Under the pieces are notes generated by a model. The model did not search any database. It saw only the letters and a list, made by a program, of their open reading frames with translations, and was not told where the DNA came from. Below, piece after piece: positions 1,837 through 10,460 of a stretch of DNA of 12,475 nt. This DNA is from a virus (taxonomy: Duplodnaviria > Heunggongvirae > Uroviricota > Caudoviricetes), in the IMG/VR virus record IMGVR_UViG_2923286960_000002; one strand, given 5' to 3'. The position numbers were made by a program, and so were the translations under genes. Within the stretch, counting starts at the first letter, position 1; the number at the start of each line of letters is the position of its first letter.

Positions 1837-3129
1837 ATGAATACTGGATATTCTCCCGAACAAGGGCGGGGCTTCGTTCGTCCTGAAAAACAGAATCTGC
1901 AAAATTTTGCCGAAAGTATTCCGGTTATTTCCGGCCTTACTGGCGGGAGTGAAACCAATATTGTTAACGCCAGAGCGTTGCAGATGTTTGATGATAAAAA
2001 GGGAGTAAATTTAACTTACACCCCTGACGGCAATCAGAATATGAGCATTATCTCTGAGTCAGGTTTCTACAAACTAATAAAAACAAAAAGCGCCCCGTTG
2101 CCGGAGCGCCTTTGTGAACAATTAACCTACTGCGCAAAAAATGAATCTGAGCAGTGGGATTATATCAACCATGTGGAGAAGCGCCACAATTGCCGAATAA
2201 CGGGCAAAACAAAGGCCACCCGCTACGGTGGCCCCTCGACACAAGCTACACGTTATCCCCAACGCATGAGCATTGCCAACAATGCCACATTTGCGGCTGG
2301 TGGGCAATGCAATCAGTCTGGTTCAGTTCGTTGCCATACCTGCAATGAGCGCTTTTCCCTGTACTCTTTAAGGAATTGCTCAAGGGCAAAAGCACATGGC
2401 GCGAATCTTTCTGATTCATGCTCTATCTTTCTGCGCCGTCTTTTCCGTGCCGGTGATAATGTTTTGGTCAATTCTTTATCGGTCATTGTGTTGTCCTGCA
2501 TAGCAATGCGCCGTAATACCTTACACCACGGCGCTGATGGTGATTACTCTGGTTCTTTGGCCTTGCGGCGCTGGCGATATTCAACTTCTCGTTTTAATGC
2601 CGCAGTAACAAATTGCCCCGTACTTTCGCCAGGCATTTTTACCGCCTCAACATTGTTCATAACTTCATGCGGAACCCTTGCCGCAACGGTTTGTGATTTT
2701 GCGTTTACTGCTTTTGTCGCCATGTGGTGTACCCCTCATAAAAAACAAATGCAGTATGCAGGAAAAAAAATAAGTGTTCAACACTTGACGTGTTTAACAC
2801 CTGGGTTTAAATTGGTGTTCAACACCTTGTTGGCGCAAGGTGCAGAAACGACGAAACCCGGCAGTGCGCTAACACTAACCGGGCTTCTAACCACCAACGA
2901 TAGCGAAAGTATCGAGGTAGCTATGCGAAATCATACCACACACCCGCAAGGGCGGGACTCGCACAACCTGAATAAATACATCTGGCGTTTTATCGCCCTG
3001 AGCACGGCACAACCGCGCGTGATTACCATTGAGGCCACCAGCGAACAGGAAGCACGCCAGCAATCTCCGGCTGGCTGCGTGATGGTATTCGCTGCCCGTA
3101 TTCGTCAGGAGGTGTGCCATGTGCAATAA
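1837..3129 (+). CDS. Bro-N-like domain ORF (antirepressor-like N-terminus); 3' two-thirds of the frame doubtful, possibly degraded
   Basis: N-terminal ~110 aa resemble the Bro-N domain (NLQNF..., DDKKGV..TPDGNQNMSIISESGFYKLIKTKSAP). From about aa 120 the frame is Cys/Ser/Thr/Arg-rich and poor in Asp/Glu/Lys, and it is antisense to a well-supported RHH gene. No clear SD before the ATG. Confidence 0.4.
   Translation: MNTGYSPEQGRGFVRPEKQNLQNFAESIPVISGLTGGSETNIVNARALQMFDDKKGVNLTYTPDGNQNMSIISESGFYKLIKTKSAPLPERLCEQLTYCAKNESEQWDYINHVEKRHNCRITGKTKATRYGGPSTQATRYPQRMSIANNATFAAGGQCNQSGSVRCHTCNERFSLYSLRNCSRAKAHGANLSDSCSIFLRRLFRAGDNVLVNSLSVIVLSCIAMRRNTLHHGADGDYSGSLALRRWRYSTSRFNAAVTNCPVLSPGIFTASTLFITSCGTLAATVCDFAFTAFVAMWCTPHKKQMQYAGKKISVQHLTCLTPGFKLVFNTLLAQGAETTKPGSALTLTGLLTTNDSESIEVAMRNHTTHPQGRDSHNLNKYIWRFIALSTAQPRVITIEATSEQEARQQSPAGCVMVFAARIRQEVCHVQ
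2313..2501 (-). CDS. Hypothetical small basic protein, second gene of the leftward RHH operon
   Basis: 62 aa, highly charged (KRRRRK), 42 nt downstream of the RHH gene on the same strand; no recognisable fold by eye. Confidence 0.3.
   Translation of the reverse strand: MQDNTMTDKELTKTLSPARKRRRRKIEHESERFAPCAFALEQFLKEYREKRSLQVWQRTEPD
2544..2723 (-). CDS. Ribbon-helix-helix (Arc/CopG/MetJ-like) DNA-binding protein, putative island repressor
   Basis: 59 aa ORF below the track's length cutoff: MATKAVNAKSQTVAARVPHEVMNNVEAVKMPGESTGQFVTAALKREVEYRQRRKAKEPE. Beta-strand/helix/G-x-S-T helix pattern of RHH proteins; GAGGGG SD ~9 nt upstream of ATG; three palindromic operators immediately upstream. Confidence 0.55.
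   Translation of the reverse strand: MATKAVNAKSQTVAARVPHEVMNNVEAVKMPGESTGQFVTAALKREVEYRQRRKAKEPE
2753..2826. promoter_or_regulatory. Divergent promoter/operator switch with three GTGTT-N-AACAC palindromes
   Basis: O1 2774-2784 gtgttcaacac, O2 2790-2800 gtgtttaacac, O3 2815-2825 gtgttcaacac. Rightward promoter TTGACG (2785-2790), 17 nt spacer, TAAATT (2808-2813). Leftward promoter TTGAAC (complement of 2776-2781), 17 nt, CATACT (complement of 2753-2758). O1 overlaps the leftward -35, O2 lies in the rightward spacer, O3 just after the rightward -10. Confidence 0.55.
2923..3129 (+). CDS. Hypothetical 68 aa protein; alternative first gene of the rightward operon (same frame as the 3' end of the 1837 ORF)
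   Basis: ATG at 2923 preceded by GAGGT; lies ~100 nt downstream of the rightward promoter; its stop overlaps the next start (ATGTGCAATAA). Confidence 0.3.
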   Translation: MRNHTTHPQGRDSHNLNKYIWRFIALSTAQPRVITIEATSEQEARQQSPAGCVMVFAARIRQEVCHVQ

Positions 3130-3815: not shown

Positions 3816-4115
3816 ATGAAACTTAAATATTCTGGCTTAACTGCCAGTGGCAACACTCACCCTAAATTTACGCGCGGTGATATTTACCGCGACCAGTACG
3901 GCGGCACGGTAATGATTAAGGGCGTGGAAGAACGGCGTGTAACCTACCGCCGTGAAGGTTACGAATATGATTGCGTGATGCCTGTTTATCAGTTCCGGCG
4001 TGATTTTTCTCTGGTACAGACCGCGCCGCATAACGTGCCCACCAGCAACGCCAGGGCACGGGCAAACATCCAGAAGCTGAAAACCATGATTAACGGATTC
4101 AGGGGTAAAAAATGA
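3816..4115 (+). CDS. Hypothetical protein (99 aa), possibly a conserved enterobacterial prophage small protein
   Basis: Motif GDIYRDQYGGTVMIKGVEERRVTYRREGYEYDC; stop overlaps the start of the replication gene (ATGA at 4112-4115). Confidence 0.5.
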   Translation: MKLKYSGLTASGNTHPKFTRGDIYRDQYGGTVMIKGVEERRVTYRREGYEYDCVMPVYQFRRDFSLVQTAPHNVPTSNARARANIQKLKTMINGFRGKK

Positions 4116-5866
4116 AACTGGCACCGAACGTAAAACAGCAGTCACGCGGCATAAAACACAAAGGAACAGAAGTCATTATTTTTGCGGGTAGTGATGCCTG
4201 GGCACACGCGAAACAATGGCAGGAACATGATGCGCGTATGGCCGGAGATAATGAGCCTCCTGTGTGGCTTGGGGAGCAGCAGTTATCAGAACTGGATAAG
4301 CTGCAAATTGTGCCGGAAGGCAGAAAATCCGTGCGCATATTCAGGGCCGGATATCTTGCGCCAGTAATGATAAAGGCGATTGGCCAGAAGCTGGCGGCGG
4401 CAGGCGTACAGGATGCAAATTTTTACCCTGATGGTATGCACGGTCAGAAGGTGGAGAACTGGCGCGAATATCTGGCCCGTGAGCGCCAGAATCTTTCTGA
4501 TGGTCTGGTCATTGAGCTTCCGGTAAAGCAAAAGGCGCAACTTTCGCAGATGGCGGACAGTGAGCGCGCGCAGCTGCTTGCCGATCGCTTTGATGGCGTT
4601 TGCGTACATCCTGAAAGTGAAATCGTTCACGTATGGCGCGGCGGGGTATGGTGTCCGGTCAGCACAATGGAGCTTAGCCGCGAAATGGTGGCGATCTATT
4701 CAGAGCACAGGGCCACTTTCAGCAAGCGCGTAATCAATAACGCCGTGGAAGCGTTAAAAGTTATTGCCGAACCAATGGGCGAGCCGTCCGGCGATTTGCT
4801 GCCGTTCGCCAATGGTGCGCTTGACCTGAAAACGGGGGAATTTTCCCCGCACACGCCGGAGAACTGGATCACCACGCACAACGGCATTGAGTACACGCCA
4901 CCAGCACCCGGGGAGAACATCCGCGATAACGCGCCAAACTTTCATAAATGGCTTGAGCACGCAGCCGGAAAAGACCCGCGCAAGATGATGCGTATATGTG
5001 CCGCGCTGTACATGATTATGGCGAACCGGTACGACTGGCAGATGTTTATTGAGGCCACCGGAGACGGCGGGAGCGGTAAAAGTACATTCACACACATAGC
5101 CAGCCTTCTGGCAGGGAAACAGAACACGGTAAGCGCTGAAATGACATCGCTTGATGATGCTGGTGGACGTGCGCAGGTTGTCGGGAGTCGTCTTATCGTC
5201 CTGGCTGACCAGCCGAAATATACAGGCGAAGGAACGGGCATCAAGAAAATCACAGGCGGCGACCCCGTGGAAGTTAACCCGAAATATGAAAAGCGTTTCA
5301 CGGCGGTAATCAGGGCGGTGGTGCTGGCGACCAACAACAACCCGATGATATTCACCGAACGGGCCGGAGGTGTGGCACGTCGTCGCGTGATTTTCCGTTT
5401 CGACAATATCGTCAGTGAGGCCGACAAAGACAGGGAGCTACCGGAAAAGATTGCGGCTGAAATCCCTGTGATTATCCGCCGATTACTGGCGAACTTTTCC
5501 GCCCCTGAAAAGGCACGGGCTTTACTCATTGAACAGCGTGACGGTGATGAAGCACTGGCGATAAAGCAGCAAACGGATCCGGTTATTGAGTTTTGCCAGT
5601 TCCTGAATTTTCTGGAGGAAGCGCGCGGCCTGATGATGGGGGGCGGTGGCGATTCAGTGAAGTACACGACCAGGAACAGCCTTTACCGCGTCTATCTGGC
5701 GTTTATGGCATACGCAGGCAGGAGCAAACCGCTAAACGTAAATGACTTTGGCAAGGCTATGAAGCCAGCCGCGAAAGTTTACGGACATGAATATATTACG
5801 CGGAAAGTTAAGGGAGTAACGCAGACTAACGCAATAACAACAGACGATTGCGACGCGTTTTTATAA
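4112..5866 (+). CDS. Replication initiator/helicase, P4 alpha C-terminal-like (D5_N + SF3 helicase); PICI Pri-Rep-like
   Basis: 584 aa; Walker A GDGGSGKST near aa 315 followed by a hydrophobic strand ending LIVLAD; overall resemblance to the phage/plasmid primase P4-family C-terminal domain. No TOPRIM or AEP primase motif recognised by eye in the N-terminal 300 aa. Confidence 0.88.
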   Translation: MKLAPNVKQQSRGIKHKGTEVIIFAGSDAWAHAKQWQEHDARMAGDNEPPVWLGEQQLSELDKLQIVPEGRKSVRIFRAGYLAPVMIKAIGQKLAAAGVQDANFYPDGMHGQKVENWREYLARERQNLSDGLVIELPVKQKAQLSQMADSERAQLLADRFDGVCVHPESEIVHVWRGGVWCPVSTMELSREMVAIYSEHRATFSKRVINNAVEALKVIAEPMGEPSGDLLPFANGALDLKTGEFSPHTPENWITTHNGIEYTPPAPGENIRDNAPNFHKWLEHAAGKDPRKMMRICAALYMIMANRYDWQMFIEATGDGGSGKSTFTHIASLLAGKQNTVSAEMTSLDDAGGRAQVVGSRLIVLADQPKYTGEGTGIKKITGGDPVEVNPKYEKRFTAVIRAVVLATNNNPMIFTERAGGVARRRVIFRFDNIVSEADKDRELPEKIAAEIPVIIRRLLANFSAPEKARALLIEQRDGDEALAIKQQTDPVIEFCQFLNFLEEARGLMMGGGGDSVKYTTRNSLYRVYLAFMAYAGRSKPLNVNDFGKAMKPAAKVYGHEYITRKVKGVTQTNAITTDDCDAFL

Positions 5867-6154: not shown

Positions 6155-6412
6155 ATGCGCACATCAGGAAAACTTAATAATCAGAAGAAGCAGCATAACC
6201 GCGCCATTGACCTTACAGAGCACTGGCTGAGAGTGGCGATAAAAATCATCGACCGCAACACGGGGGAAGGATACGCGAAAGCACATCCCGACCTGATAAG
6301 CGCATTCATGACCACGGCGGCGGCAAACTTTGCCACGCTGACAGAACGGGAGATTGCCGAAGCGGAACAGGTAACAACCATCAACGTTAAAACCGGAGAG
6401 GTGGAATCATGA
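6155..6412 (+). CDS. Hypothetical protein (85 aa)
   Basis: Strong SD GAGGGGG upstream; stop overlaps the SSB-like start (ATGA at 6409-6412). Confidence 0.5.
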   Translation: MRTSGKLNNQKKQHNRAIDLTEHWLRVAIKIIDRNTGEGYAKAHPDLISAFMTTAAANFATLTEREIAEAEQVTTINVKTGEVES

Positions 6413-6831
6413 CAGCACAGATAGCAGCTTACGGGCGGCTGGTGGACGACCCGCAGGTAAAACAGACCAGCAAGGGCACACCAATGACGCTGGCACGTAT
6501 GGCGGTCCCCCTTCCGTGCAGCCAGGCAGATGACGGAACGGCGACGATGTGGTTATCCGTCCTGGCATTTGGCAGACAGGCCGAAGCACTGGAAAGGCAC
6601 CGCAAGGGTGAACTCCTGAGCGTGGCGGGTAACATGCAGATCAGCCAGTGGACTGGGCAGAACTGAGAAACGCGGCAGGGCTGGCAGGTTATCGCAGACA
6701 GTGTAATCAGTGCGCGAACGGCGCGACTGGGCGGCAAAAAAGGTCAACAGGGCCAGGCTACTGACGCGCTGAACAGGGCAAAACAACAGGCGGGGAATGA
6801 TGATCCGTACGGGGATAACATACCGTTTTAA
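6409..6831 (+). pseudogene. ssb: SSB-like OB-fold protein interrupted by a single in-frame TGA (6664-6666); nonsense mutation, readthrough or sequencing error
   Basis: N-terminal 85 aa align to the SSB OB fold (YGRLVDDPQVKQTSKG...WLSVLAFGRQAEALERHRKGELLSVAGNMQISQWTGQN). The same frame continues after the TGA for 54 codons and ends in the SSB acidic tip ...DDPYGDNIPF. The TGA sits where SSB has a conserved Gly codon. Confidence 0.7.
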
Positions 6832-7246: not shown

Positions 7247-7453
7247 ATGGCTGAAGAGAAAAAAGGCGGTGTTTCGGTGTACATAAGCCCCGAAATCGTG
7301 GAGGTGCTCAAGCAGCGCCACAAAAAAAACTATGAGGCTGGCGTGGCGGCTGGACTGGATCCGCTGATGACGCCGGAGCCGTCGATAGGTTCACTTGTAC
7401 GCTCTTATTTACTTGCGGCGCTTGGGATGCATAAAAATTATGGGGGTGAATAA
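7247..7453 (+). CDS. Hypothetical protein (68 aa), first gene of the head operon
   Basis: SD GAGGA upstream; stop overlaps the capsid gene start (TAATG); no recognisable family by eye. Confidence 0.5.
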   Translation: MAEEKKGGVSVYISPEIVEVLKQRHKKNYEAGVAAGLDPLMTPEPSIGSLVRSYLLAALGMHKNYGGE

Positions 7454-8508
7454 TGGCAGGAAAAGCAACGGCACTTAACACTAACCAGCTTTTCATGTAC
7501 CTGAATCGCGGGGATATTGCGGATTTTAAATTCAGCCCTCTGTTTACCACGCTGTTTTTCCCGAACGTGGCGACATTCAGCACGCAAAACATCATGCTGG
7601 ATACCCTGGACATTGAAGAAGTCACCATGTCGGCGTTTTGTTCGCCTATGGTGGGTAGCCAGGTTCAGCGCGATAAAGGGTACGAAACCAGCACGATTAA
7701 ACCTGGCTACATGAAGCCAAAGCACGAAATCGATCCAACGAAAACCATCATGCGCATGGCTGGAGAAGATCCGGCACAGCTTAACGACCCTACCTATCGC
7801 CGTATGCGCCTGATTACTGGCAATATGCGCCGCCAGATAAACGCCATAAAAGCGCGCGTGGAATGGCTGGCGGTAAATGCGGTAACGACCGGAAAAAACA
7901 TCATTGAGGGCGAAGGCATAGAGCGCTATGAAATCGACTGGAAGATCCCAAGTAAAAATATCGCCAGACAGGGACATGGCAAAAAGTGGTCAGAGGCAGA
8001 TAAGGAAACACACGATCCAATCTATGACATTGAGCTATACGCAGATCAGGCAGGTTGCCCCGCAAACGTCATGATTATGGGCGTTGATGTATGGCGCATG
8101 TTACGCAGCTTTAAAAAATTCCGTGAACTGTACGATCTCTCCCGTGGTTCAGAATCCGCCGCAGAGCTGGCATGTAAAAACCTGGGCGAAGTGGTGAGCT
8201 TTAAAGGCTATCTTGGTGATCTGGCCCTTATCGTCTATTCCGGCAAATACACTGACAGCGACGGCACAGAAAAATATTTCCTTGAGCCTGATTTGCTTGT
8301 CCTGGGCAACACCAACAATAAAGGGCTGGTGGCCTATGGTGCGATTATGGATCAGGACGCAGTAAGAACGGGGGCAACGCAAAACATGTACTACCCGAAA
8401 AACTGGATTGAGGACGGAGATCCGGCGATTGAGTACGTGCAGACGCACAGCGCACCGCAGCCGGTTCCGGCAGATATTCGCAAATTTGTTACTGTCAAAA
8501 TTGCTTAA
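7453..8508 (+). CDS. Major capsid protein, lambda gpE family
   Basis: 351 aa; conserved blocks shared with lambda gpE as recalled: FKFSPLF..LFF, PGYMKPKHE, EDPAQLNDPTYRR, WSEADKETHDP, VSFKGYLGD.A.IVYSG.Y, LVLGNT, YPKNW...GDPA, SAP. Confidence 0.92.
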   Translation: MAGKATALNTNQLFMYLNRGDIADFKFSPLFTTLFFPNVATFSTQNIMLDTLDIEEVTMSAFCSPMVGSQVQRDKGYETSTIKPGYMKPKHEIDPTKTIMRMAGEDPAQLNDPTYRRMRLITGNMRRQINAIKARVEWLAVNAVTTGKNIIEGEGIERYEIDWKIPSKNIARQGHGKKWSEADKETHDPIYDIELYADQAGCPANVMIMGVDVWRMLRSFKKFRELYDLSRGSESAAELACKNLGEVVSFKGYLGDLALIVYSGKYTDSDGTEKYFLEPDLLVLGNTNNKGLVAYGAIMDQDAVRTGATQNMYYPKNWIEDGDPAIEYVQTHSAPQPVPADIRKFVTVKIA

Positions 8509-8519
8509 CGGGGGATTCT

Positions 8520-8855
8520 ATGGACACTCCATACATTGAGTTATTTGCAGGCAGTCAGCAGGTCGCCACGACGCTGGTACATTTTGCCGCTGATGCTGGC
8601 GTTATTCAGGAATTTACCCCGCTGATGCTGGCGGACAATGGCGAGTTTAAGCCGTGGGATGGTCAGGAATCTGGCAAGGCTGTTTATCTGACTTCGTATC
8701 CTGTGGACACGTCAAAGCAGAAATCAGCACAGTGTTACAAGACGGGGATATTCAATATTGCCGCCGTTAACTGGCCTGAGAGCGTCGACACCGATGCGAA
8801 AAAATGCGCCGCCTTTGCGGGTTCCGGCGTATCCGTTCAGCCGCTGGCCCGATAA
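8520..8855 (+). CDS. Head decoration protein, lambda gpD-like
   Basis: 111 aa; TPLMLADNGEFKPWDG..., YKTGIFNIAAVNWPESVDTDAKKCAAFAGSGVSV parallels lambda gpD TPLMLDTSSRKLVAWDG..., YKSGTF.YEDVLWPEA..DETKKRTAFAGTAISIV. Confidence 0.85.
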   Translation: MDTPYIELFAGSQQVATTLVHFAADAGVIQEFTPLMLADNGEFKPWDGQESGKAVYLTSYPVDTSKQKSAQCYKTGIFNIAAVNWPESVDTDAKKCAAFAGSGVSVQPLAR

Positions 8856-8867
8856 GCAGGGGGAACG

Positions 8868-9281
8868 ATGGCAACGAATGAAAGCATCATGACGCTACCG
8901 CTGGCGAGTAAATTTAAAGCCGAAGCGCGGGCAATGGCTGACAGAGGTTTATCAACCTATGAGGCCGTATATCAACTAAACAAACTGGAAGAGCAGGACA
9001 AGCCGCGCGCTGATGCGATTATGGCGCTTCATGAGCATAAAGACTATCAGCCGCTGTTACGTGCAATGGCAAACGTGCCATGTATTAGCGTCGATAATGC
9101 TCGTGAAATCCTGAACATGACCATAGAGCAGGAGCGCCCAAAGGTTGCACCAGAGCTTACCGCAGCCTTTGAAAACTTTATGGACATGCACAGCCCGCAA
9201 GCCGTATCAGCTGGCATGGCATACGATGGCAGAAACCAGGGCGATGACGGCGACATCGATCGCATACTGAAAACCATCTGA
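8868..9281 (+). CDS. Hypothetical protein (137 aa), last gene of the head operon
   Basis: Good SD and protein-like composition; position analogous to lambda FI but no similarity recognised by eye. Confidence 0.5.
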   Translation: MATNESIMTLPLASKFKAEARAMADRGLSTYEAVYQLNKLEEQDKPRADAIMALHEHKDYQPLLRAMANVPCISVDNAREILNMTIEQERPKVAPELTAAFENFMDMHSPQAVSAGMAYDGRNQGDDGDIDRILKTI

Positions 9282-9286
9282 GACAA

Positions 9287-9311
9287 GGCCGGAGAAATCC
9301 GGCTTTTTTTT
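9287..9311 (+). terminator. Rho-independent terminator
   Basis: Stem gccgga/tccggc with gaaa loop followed by T8; near-identical to the hairpin at 6847-6869. Confidence 0.6.
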
Positions 9312-9392
9312 ACGGGTCCTTTCCGGCATATGGACCCGTTACGGGGCGGCGACCTCGCGGGTTTTCGCTATTTATGACGTTTTTCCGTGAAG
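9311..9392 (+). other. Lambda-type cos site (cos1): cosQ/cosN plus a short cosB-like segment
   Basis: tacgggtcctttccgg...ccgttacg | GGGCGGCGACCT (9344-9355) CGCGGGTTTTCGCTATTTATGA matches the lambda right-end/left-end junction as recalled, with the 12-nt cohesive end identical; followed by an R3-like cgtttttccgtg. Lies ~90 bp upstream of the Nu1-like gene. Confidence 0.85.
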
Positions 9393-9444
9393 GTGACACC
9401 ACCACCACTTGATTAATATTTAACCATGCAGTTAAGGTAACATT

Positions 9445-9885
9445 ATGATTGATAAAGCTTGTTTTGTAAGTCAGCAGGAAATAGCTGAACATTTCAAGGT
9501 TAACAGAACCACTATTCGCGCATGGACCAAACAGGGGATGCCGTATCTTAATGCGGATCGCGGAAAGTCTGGCGGTTATCACATCGGGCATACATTGCTT
9601 TGGTCTTCAGGTAAAAGCCGTCTTGAGGCCATCAGATATCACGTAGAAACCAGTGTGCTGGAAAAAATTATGTTTGCCAGGCTGCTTTCATCTGAGCGTG
9701 ACGAGTACTCCAGTGAAGAAACAGAACATAGATTTGATGAAGGTTTACAGATTTACGGCTACTCACCGGAAGAAGTGAGCAAAGCGCGAAATAAAATGGC
9801 CGGCTTTCTGGCTGGGTGGCGTCATGCCGTAAGCGTTCGCCGTGCCAGCATGGAACAATCAGTCGTTACAGAACAGCAAAGTTAA
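9445..9885 (+). CDS. Nu1-like HTH protein: small terminase subunit or TerS-mimicking packaging redirector (Rpp-like)
   Basis: 146 aa; N-terminus FVSQQEIAEHFKVNRTTIRAWTKQGMPYL..GKSGGYHIGHTLLW resembles the lambda Nu1 winged-HTH DNA-binding domain (QLADIFGASIRTIQNWQEQGMPVL...); SD AAGGT upstream. Confidence 0.75.
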   Translation: MIDKACFVSQQEIAEHFKVNRTTIRAWTKQGMPYLNADRGKSGGYHIGHTLLWSSGKSRLEAIRYHVETSVLEKIMFARLLSSERDEYSSEETEHRFDEGLQIYGYSPEEVSKARNKMAGFLAGWRHAVSVRRASMEQSVVTEQQS

Positions 9886-9914
9886 AAATCACTTTCTGTT
9901 ACGCCATCAAATAC

Positions 9915-10011
9915 GCAATACAACAACCACGTATTTTTTTAAAACTATTTGATTCAATTAGCATTTTTTTATTTTTAGCATCAAAAAAACACTATCAGGT
10001 TGTTGTATTGC
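9915..10011. repeat. 14-bp perfect inverted repeat flanking a 69-bp AT-rich segment (candidate cosB with TerS R-sites and a bend site)
   Basis: GCAATACAACAACC at 9915-9928 and GGTTGTTGTATTGC at 9998-10011; the intervening sequence is AT-rich with an IHF-like aATCAAatagTTt on the bottom strand. Confidence 0.5.
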
Positions 10012-10079
10012 TCTTTATTTTTACTTAGTTATCAAATGGATATGACAAACAATTAAACAACAACCTCCCTCTAAAAAAG

Positions 10080-10150
10080 CTCATAAATAGCGAAAAACCG
10101 CGAGGTCGCCGCCCCGTAACGGGCCATAATTCCAGGAAGGACCCGACGAC
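10080..10150 (-). other. Second lambda-type cos site (cos2), inverted relative to cos1
   Basis: Reverse complement reads cgggtccttcctgg...ggcccgttacg GGGCGGCGACCT CGCGGTTTTTCGCTATTTATGAG (12-mer at complement of 10103-10114), near-identical to cos1 over ~45 bp. Confidence 0.8.
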
Positions 10151-10178: not shown

Positions 10179-10460
10179 ATGACAGAAGCCGAAATACTGC
10201 GATTAATCCGCCGCGTTGCCGGAATCAGCCAGCAGGCCGACGAACAGACCACGCAGCCGGACAGCGTGACCGCCGAAAATTATGTTCGTGTGGTTGCTGA
10301 GATGATTCGCCGTAATGGTATCCAGCTTAATGATGTGGATATGCGCAACATACGGATCCGCGTTCTTGAAATGCTGGCCTACAATCGCCGCGTGGCACTG
10401 TATCGGGAAACGGAGAAAATTACGTACCACTGGAAGAAGCCGGAGCGGTTGCGGCGGTAA
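10179..10460 (+). CDS. Hypothetical protein (93 aa)
   Basis: ATG preceded by GGGGG SD; charged, helical-looking composition; no family recognised by eye. Confidence 0.45.
   Translation: MTEAEILRLIRRVAGISQQADEQTTQPDSVTAENYVRVVAEMIRRNGIQLNDVDMRNIRIRVLEMLAYNRRVALYRETEKITYHWKKPERLRR

Follow-up and report, generated by a model that had tools for sequence, protein, structure and literature searches.

Inverted lambda-type cos sites that differ in their cosB flanks in an Escherichia coli island of the EcCICFT073 family

The island and its inverted cos sites

In this study, we analysed a 12,475-nucleotide stretch of DNA (the window) that matches the chromosome of E. coli NCTC86 at 100% identity and that of strain CFT073 at 96.5% identity over 92% of the window length. 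The island is located between roxA and phoQ. It is small (about 10-12 kb), and its integrase, small regulator and primase/replication module follow one another in the order of a phage-inducible chromosomal island (PICI). Judged by these alignments, the window represents a variant form of the model PICI of Gram-negative bacteria, EcCICFT073. The following genes were assigned in the island backbone and at its end:

1-1230, tyrosine integrase
1596-1784, HTH regulator
4112-5866, D5_N/DUF5906 primase
7453-8508, lambda gpE-like major capsid protein
8520-8855, lambda gpD-like decoration protein
right end of the window, phoQ (host gene)

A capsid gene is present in 21 of 29 reference islands and was reported to be dispensable for transfer (PMC10111431). 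In the NCTC86 annotation, the island ssb gene (6409-6831) is a pseudogene with an internal stop and the BRO-N gene (2041-2568) is a partial pseudogene. A 430-aa ORF at 1837-3129 has no Pfam match.

The packaging region, here called the cassette, lies between two ORFs of 137 and 93 aa and contains the following features:

8868..9281, + strand, 137-aa ORF bordering the cassette on the left; annotated in some genomes as 'phage head-tail connector protein', no Pfam family
9285..9310, + strand, hairpin resembling a terminator, with a T-run, immediately 5' of the cos1 cosQ
9313..9384, + strand, cos1 arm of the inverted repeat, including the cosQ and cosN region
9314-9320, + strand, cosQ of cos1, GGGTCCT
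9344..9355, + strand, cosN 12-mer of cos1, GGGCGGCGACCT
9356..9525, + strand, Rpp-type cosB of cos1
9397-9408, + strand, conserved element CACCACCACCAC, at +54 from cosN, the R3 position
9445..9885, + strand, rppA (redirecting phage packaging protein, 146 aa), product 97% identical to EcCICFT073 RppA (c1503)
9905..10102, - strand, cos2 cosB of the phage type ('allele A'), homologous to the stretch between cosN and terS in lambdoid prophages
9920-9928, - strand, GGTTGTTGT repeat R1'
9998-10006, inverted, GGTTGTTGT repeat R2'
10057-10065, - strand, GGTTGTTGT repeat R3'
10074..10145, - strand, cos2 arm of the inverted repeat
10103..10114, - strand, cosN 12-mer of cos2
10138-10144, - strand, cosQ of cos2, AGGACCC as read on the + strand
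10179..10460, + strand, 93-aa ORF, right flank of the cassette

The exact lambda cohesive-end 12-mer GGGCGGCGACCT is found twice in the window, once on each strand, and is expected only ~0.0015 times per 12.5 kb when both strands are counted. The two copies lie in inverted arms of 72 nt each that are 86% complementary, and each arm consists of a cosQ, the 12-mer and about 30 nt of the cosB side. At both sites cosQ is placed ~30 nt upstream of cosN, the lambda-type arrangement. Over about 85 nt, both arms show 82-92% identity to the cos DNA of lambdoid phages, lambda among them. When the alignment is anchored on cosN, the lambda order of cosQ (GGGTCCT), spacer, 12-mer and CGCGG.TTTTCGCTATTTATGA is seen in both arms; beyond CGCGG.TTTTCGCTATTTATGA the flanks of cos1 and cos2 differ from one another and from lambda. 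A reading made from the sequence alone (the sequence-only reading) had proposed two lambda-type cos sites in inverted orientation, had taken the 12-mer to be that of lambda cosN and had assigned different cosB flanks to the two sites. The exact 12-mers and complementary arms, the base-for-base agreement of both arms with lambda cos and the divergence of the flanks bear out these three proposals. Near-matches to the 12-mer at 5254 and 11833 were considered as extra cosN copies and rejected, as each has 2 mismatches and is at chance level.

The further statement of the sequence-only reading that no element with paired inverted cos sites had been described does not hold, since EcCICFT073 was published with functional cos1 and cos2 sites (PMC6092414, PMC6739421). 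The paired cos sites themselves are thus a rediscovery of the published EcCICFT073 cos1/cos2 packaging module. Two cosN sequences were reported in EcCICFT073 (Fillol-Salom et al., 2018, ISME J, PMC6092414). A plasmid with either EcCICFT073 cos cloned alone is transferable by lambda and phage 80, and in the island deletion of cos1 lowers transfer, deletion of cos2 raises it and the double deletion abolishes it; island replication follows induction (PMC6092414). RppA forms a heterodimer with the helper TerS (Fillol-Salom et al., 2019, Mol Cell, PMC6739421). This complex recognises the cosB of cos1 and not that of phages, and this recognition promotes island packaging and blocks the phage (PMC6739421). 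RppA increases transfer solely of DNA with the cos1 cosB, and the published cosB swaps gave no RppA effect via the cos2 flank (PMC6739421). The authors identified no phage cosB in the island and left open the reason for two cos sites; in their Figure S1A, as in the sequence-only reading, cos1 is the site upstream of rppA and cos2 the other site (PMC6739421). The word 'inverted' is absent from both EcCICFT073 papers (PMC6092414, PMC6739421). Induction, helper packaging and transfer, and phage interference were all demonstrated for EcCICFT073 (PMC6092414, PMC6739421). The window has the island gene set, an Rpp protein and a cos site 5' of rpp in which cosQ and cosN are phage-like and cosB is not, all sequence hallmarks of an Rpp-type cos PICI. 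On this comparison it is a further island of the EcCICFT073 family, which differs in its cos2 allele.

The cosB flanks of cos1 and cos2

The cos1 of the window matches the published EcCICFT073 cos1 almost base for base, and the arm 9313..9384 is identical. The region from about 9381 to 9525 is the counterpart of the piece that was swapped into phage 80 in the published chimera. As proposed before, cos1 is followed by a short R3-like element and then by a Nu1-like gene. The flank has a single conserved element, +54 from the first base of cosN. CACCACCACCAC is found about 50 nt from cosN at all Rpp-side cos sites, whatever the cosN type, in E. coli, Klebsiella, Phytobacter and Salmonella, and is a candidate recognition element for the Rpp-TerS complex. 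A definition of CACCACCACCAC as an element was not found in the published work searched. The Rpp loci of other genera were obtained by exact-protein look-ups, and a species-wide scan of genome contigs for Rpp loci gave no confirmed relative. The Rpp islands of Klebsiella quasipneumoniae, Phytobacter and Salmonella have one cos only.

The 146-aa protein matches the RppC crystal structure (PDB 6hlk, E=3e-31). Its similarity to lambda Nu1 is confined to the N-terminal helix-turn-helix region (33% over 49 aa). The hairpin at 9285-9310 lies between the 137-aa ORF and the cos1 cosQ, so rppA may need its own promoter within the cassette; promoter-like matches for rppA are weak only and lie at 9393-9449.

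The flank of cos2 is of a different kind. It was found in 299 of 5426 complete E. coli genomes, and copies at 74-79% identity are located in lambdoid prophages, immediately upstream of terS-terL. In an alignment with five prophages, the homology begins at cosQ, spans cosN and stops about 45 nt short of the terS start codon. The earlier suggestion of a distinct cosB at cos2 is upheld by this alignment with prophage cos-terS intervals, and by sequence comparison cos2 is a complete phage-type cos site with cosQ, cosN and a phage cosB. Its cosQ/cosN side is identical to that of the published EcCICFT073 cos2, whereas the cosB flank differs.

The allele-A flank carries three copies of GGTTGTTGT, at +50, +109 and +187 from the first base of cosN; lambda R3, R2 and R1 are at +53, +114 and +155. 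The 9-mer occurs 4 times in the window versus 0.15 expected. Across nine aligned sequences the repeat columns are 99.6% conserved, compared with 75% in the other columns. The 14-bp inverted pair GCAATACAACAACC / GGTTGTTGTATTGC described in the sequence-only reading is present at 9915-9928 / 9998-10011. However, it comprises only the second and third of three GGTTGTTGT copies, and the core copy at 10057-10065 (- strand) had been missed. In a search for an IHF site between R3 and R2, matches to the consensus WATCAANNNNTTR were one-mismatch only. The 14-bp inverted repeat folds better than shuffled sequences (z = -3.3), and an RNA hairpin or terminator of rppA was considered. This was rejected, as the arms are kept as sequence in phages without a gene ending upstream and as one prophage (L008) alters one arm (GGTTGTTAT) without a matching change in the other. 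Putative protein-binding repeats are thus the favoured reading of these conserved motifs.

In the isolated-phage collection, a DNA search for the allele-A cosB gave no match, and no isolated E. coli phage has allele A; a protein search for the corresponding TerS class returned distant relatives only (Pseudomonas ~52%, one Enterobacter phage 65%). NCTC86 has no second allele-A cosB copy, and more than one copy was seen in only 2 of the 32 genomes with the island allele of the window. There is thus no sign of a cognate prophage co-resident with the island.

EcCICFT073 itself has another phage-type flank at cos2 (cosB-B), with CCGGACAT three times, at +51, +110 and +140 from the first base of cosN. 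A second common family of prophages, among them one of O157:H7 EDL933, has cos regions with 84-98% identity to this flank, and the flank is 99.5% identical to the isolated phages PhiR12_1 to _5, just upstream of Nu1. The two cosB alleles go with two TerS classes (examples at L007:1984-2463, L008:1967-2473 and L013:2657-3166), both of which fall in the Phage_Nu1 family. The C-terminal halves of the two classes are nearly identical and their N-terminal DNA-binding regions are unrelated. In 8 of 8 prophage loci the cosB allele is paired with its own TerS N-terminal domain. This covariation is the pattern expected of cognate pairs of cosB and TerS and amounts to a mosaic swap of cosB jointly with the TerS DNA-binding domain. 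With three conserved repeats in lambda-like positions that co-vary with the TerS N-terminal domain, the cos2 flank is a candidate for a cosB with three R elements that would bind the small terminase; cos1 has one conserved element. The idea that cos1 and cos2 differ in cosB specificity fits the published work on cos1 and, for cos2, the present sequence comparison.

Cassette variants and inversion in related islands

Cassette layouts were compared in island orientation over the interval bounded by the 137-aa and 93-aa ORFs. Six types were distinguished:

Window type (about 35-44 genomes): cos, Rpp element and rppA pointing right; cosB-A and cos pointing left
EcCICFT073 type (38 genomes): window layout with cosB-B
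L025/L026 type (15 genomes): EcCICFT073 cassette flipped
L023/L024 type, no rpp (8 genomes): cos and cosB-B pointing right; 25-codon rppA remnant; cosB-A and cos pointing left
L005 type (3 genomes): flip of L023
L006 type (helper-embedded island in terL): arranged as in the window, with a different cosN type at both sites

The sequence-only reading had raised inversion of the segment between the sites. Flipped isomers do exist in related genomes, but none was found for the window's own allele among about 44 genomes that carry it. The L025/L026 islands occupy the same phoQ site but have rppA on the other strand, and their 727-bp interior is the identical reverse complement of that of CFT073. 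Flipped and canonical EcCICFT073-type cassettes occur in 15 versus 38 genomes, and L005 and L023 form a second pair of orientations. Match statistics are the same for all 15 flipped genomes, which may therefore belong to one lineage. L005 is 99.6% identical to flipped L023, with both exchange points inside the ~25-bp identical cosN core, and this pair fits homologous exchange and terminase cut-and-rejoin alike. In the left arm of L025 (3160-3215) the cosQ-cosN spacer is now identical to that of the right arm (cos2-type), and the arms thereby share a longer perfect inverted repeat. This spacer change suggests homologous exchange with gene conversion between the arms. Terminase cut-and-rejoin alone was rejected as the origin of the flipped EcCICFT073 isomer, as it does not fit the cos2-type left spacer. 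No dedicated site-specific invertase was found in the window, either in or beside the cassette.

Both phage cosB alleles, one per cos and convergent, are present in the rpp-less islands of 11 complete genomes. These islands sit next to yejO and thiM and were seen in both orientations; their cassettes (L005:2160-2760; L023:6001-6598; L024:6001-6598) retain a 25-codon 3' remnant of rppA. A second cosN type (..CACCGGGGGT....ACGCGCAAAAACGCG) was observed with the same cosQ and an allele-A cosB in a prophage (L008:2600-2750). It was also found in the helper-embedded island (L006:1929-2000, 2672-2730), where both cos sites have switched together, and in the helper prophage of that island (L027 near 16541). 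The modules cosQ, cosN and cosB thus behave as separate units. The possibility that cos2 is a copy of the cos of a linked helper was rejected for the helper-embedded island of TUM9812, whose helper shares the cosN and has another cosB and a lambda-like Nu1. In the searchable literature, no description was found of PICI cos inversion or of cos2 as a phage cosB.

A proposed packaging model, its rivals and known systems

We consider it probable that islands of the EcCICFT073 family carry a packaging module in which cos1 serves RppA-helper TerS complexes and cos2 would serve helpers with a cognate TerS. According to this model, cos1 is the island's own packaging site, in which cosQ and cosN are of the lambda type and the cosB after them is not a phage one. 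Encoded just downstream of cos1, RppA pairs with the helper small terminase, and the hybrid DNA-binding domain reads the cos1 cosB in place of that of the phage. The helper terminase is thereby redirected to the island and phage packaging blocked, as demonstrated for the near-identical EcCICFT073, where this is the main, island-specific route. The cosB of cos2 appears to have been copied from a lambdoid phage family, its three GGTTGTTGT repeats being placed like R3, R2 and R1 of lambda. Potentially, helpers whose TerS reads these repeats start island packaging directly from cos2, without Rpp and in the opposite direction, which would broaden the range of usable helpers. The inverted layout may spare rppA from deletion by repeat recombination, since recombination between inverted sites flips the 0.5-0.75 kb segment and does not delete it. 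Likewise, a terminase that started at one site would be barred from terminating at the other, because termination requires cosQ upstream of cosN. Cuts at both cosN sites would yield a fragment whose two ends carry an identical 5'-GGGCGGCGACCT overhang, and this fragment could rejoin either way. Several observations speak against the model. Deletion of cos2 raised transfer with lambda and phage 80, so cos2 is not needed, and is slightly detrimental, with these helpers (PMC6092414). Furthermore, Rpp islands of Klebsiella, Phytobacter and Salmonella have one cos, the linked helper in TUM9812 has a different cosB and there is no sign of a co-resident cognate prophage. Allele A is also missing from the E. 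coli phages of the isolated-phage collection, and the IHF matches all had one mismatch.

It is tempting to speculate further, though with slightly less than even confidence, that the inverted cosN sites enclose a 'packaging-specificity cassette' that can be both swapped and inverted, and with which the island collects the cosB of different lambdoid TerS classes. Native cosB sites would then be present alongside or instead of the Rpp route, and reshuffling would occur by recombination in the ~25-bp cosN core or by terminase cuts at both sites.

Other explanations of the inverted pair have to be weighed against the two-site packaging module. The rise in lambda and phage 80 transfer on deletion of cos2, the single cos of Rpp islands in other genera and the lack of enrichment of cognate prophages in island-carrying genomes would all fit a cos2 that was left behind as a neutral scar when the island once recombined with helper phages at cos, and that is retained only because it does little harm. 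We regard a scar as rather unlikely, as cos2 is intact in >90 complete genomes, in two alleles and with all three repeats in each, and works as a cos both when tested on plasmids and in the island that lacks cos1. Moreover, the rpp-less islands depend on two such sites, and both cosN copies changed type together in L006. That the pair is chiefly an invertible switch, which alters rppA expression or packaging direction, is improbable. Both orientations do occur naturally for two cassette types; however, there is no invertase gene in or beside the cassette, the 15 flipped genomes, with their identical match statistics, may be one lineage, and 0 of about 44 genomes with the window's allele are flipped. 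Frequent flipping is also unlikely because some pairs have no more than ~25 bp of core in common.

A native phage cosB at cos2, on an island that replicates after induction (PMC6092414), might also act as a multicopy decoy that soaks up helper terminase and aids interference rather than island transfer. This is very improbable as a separate function, as a terminase on a full cos would package the island anyway, and the decoy and packaging readings therefore largely coincide. Taken literally, the sequence-only reading would make the 146-aa protein the island's own small terminase, which binds the inverted repeats at 9915-10011; the weak resemblance to Nu1 around the N-terminal helix-turn-helix (33% over 49 aa) speaks for this. 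This has next to no chance of being correct. The protein is RppA, which acts only as a heterodimer with the helper TerS and on the cos1 cosB, so that binding to these repeats is unlikely, and the published cosB swaps, with no RppA effect via the cos2 flank, already contradict it (PMC6739421). The repeats, in turn, track the N-terminal domains of phage TerS and are found in rpp-less phages beside their own terS.

The recognition of cos2 as a phage cos, its three repeats, the two alleles with matched TerS and the natural inversion isomers go beyond published work. If cos2 is a native phage cos matched to TerS classes, its allele could tell which helpers these widespread E. coli islands are able to use. 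This would suggest concrete helper-island pairs, such as PhiR12 phages (PhiR12_1, PV340549) with EcCICFT073 and allele-A prophages, like those of E. coli VR50 (NZ_CP011134, near 2.348 Mb) and 2015C-3107, with the island of the window, and rpp-less islands could be understood as pure cos mimics. A packaging-specificity cassette, if real, would answer the published question why some PICIs have two cos sites, and the comparative results make this question directly testable. As the natural isomers show, short cos sites in inverted orientation are able to rearrange the genomes of satellites.

Among known systems, EcCICFT073 shares with the window the backbone, the chromosomal site, the convergent cos layout, RppA (97%), cos1 and the cosQ/cosN side of cos2; it differs in the cos2 cosB, with CCGGACAT three times there versus GGTTGTTGT three times in the window. 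The lambda system of cos and gpNu1 has the identical cosN 12-mer and GGGTCCT cosQ core, and the cos2 repeats follow the order and spacing of R3, R2 and R1. However, the lambda R repeat is CGTTTCC and the repeats in the window have other sequences, cos1 has one conserved element rather than the three of lambda (R3-I1-R2-R1), and neither cos site of the window has terS or terL after it. With lambdoid prophage and PhiR12-type cos regions the homology runs across cosQ to just before terS, whereas the island has the 3' end of rppA, pointing at cos2, in the place of the phage terS. The helper-embedded PICI 11capE has a 258-bp cos-region sequence in common with its helper 50icd at the same place in the island, but one shared stretch was reported there, and two inverted sites with different cosB were not described (PMC10111431). 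The cos SaPIs (SaPIbov5, and SaPIbov4 with two putative cos) and satellite P4 also carry the helper's cos for packaging by the helper terminase; their backbones and hosts are unrelated, and they have no Rpp and no documented inverted pair of two specificities. The Gin, Hin, Cin and fim switches resemble the cassette in having inverted repeats around a segment seen in both orientations, but the window is without a dedicated recombinase and its repeats are cos sites. The cassette would more likely flip by RecA-dependent exchange or by terminase cut-and-rejoin.
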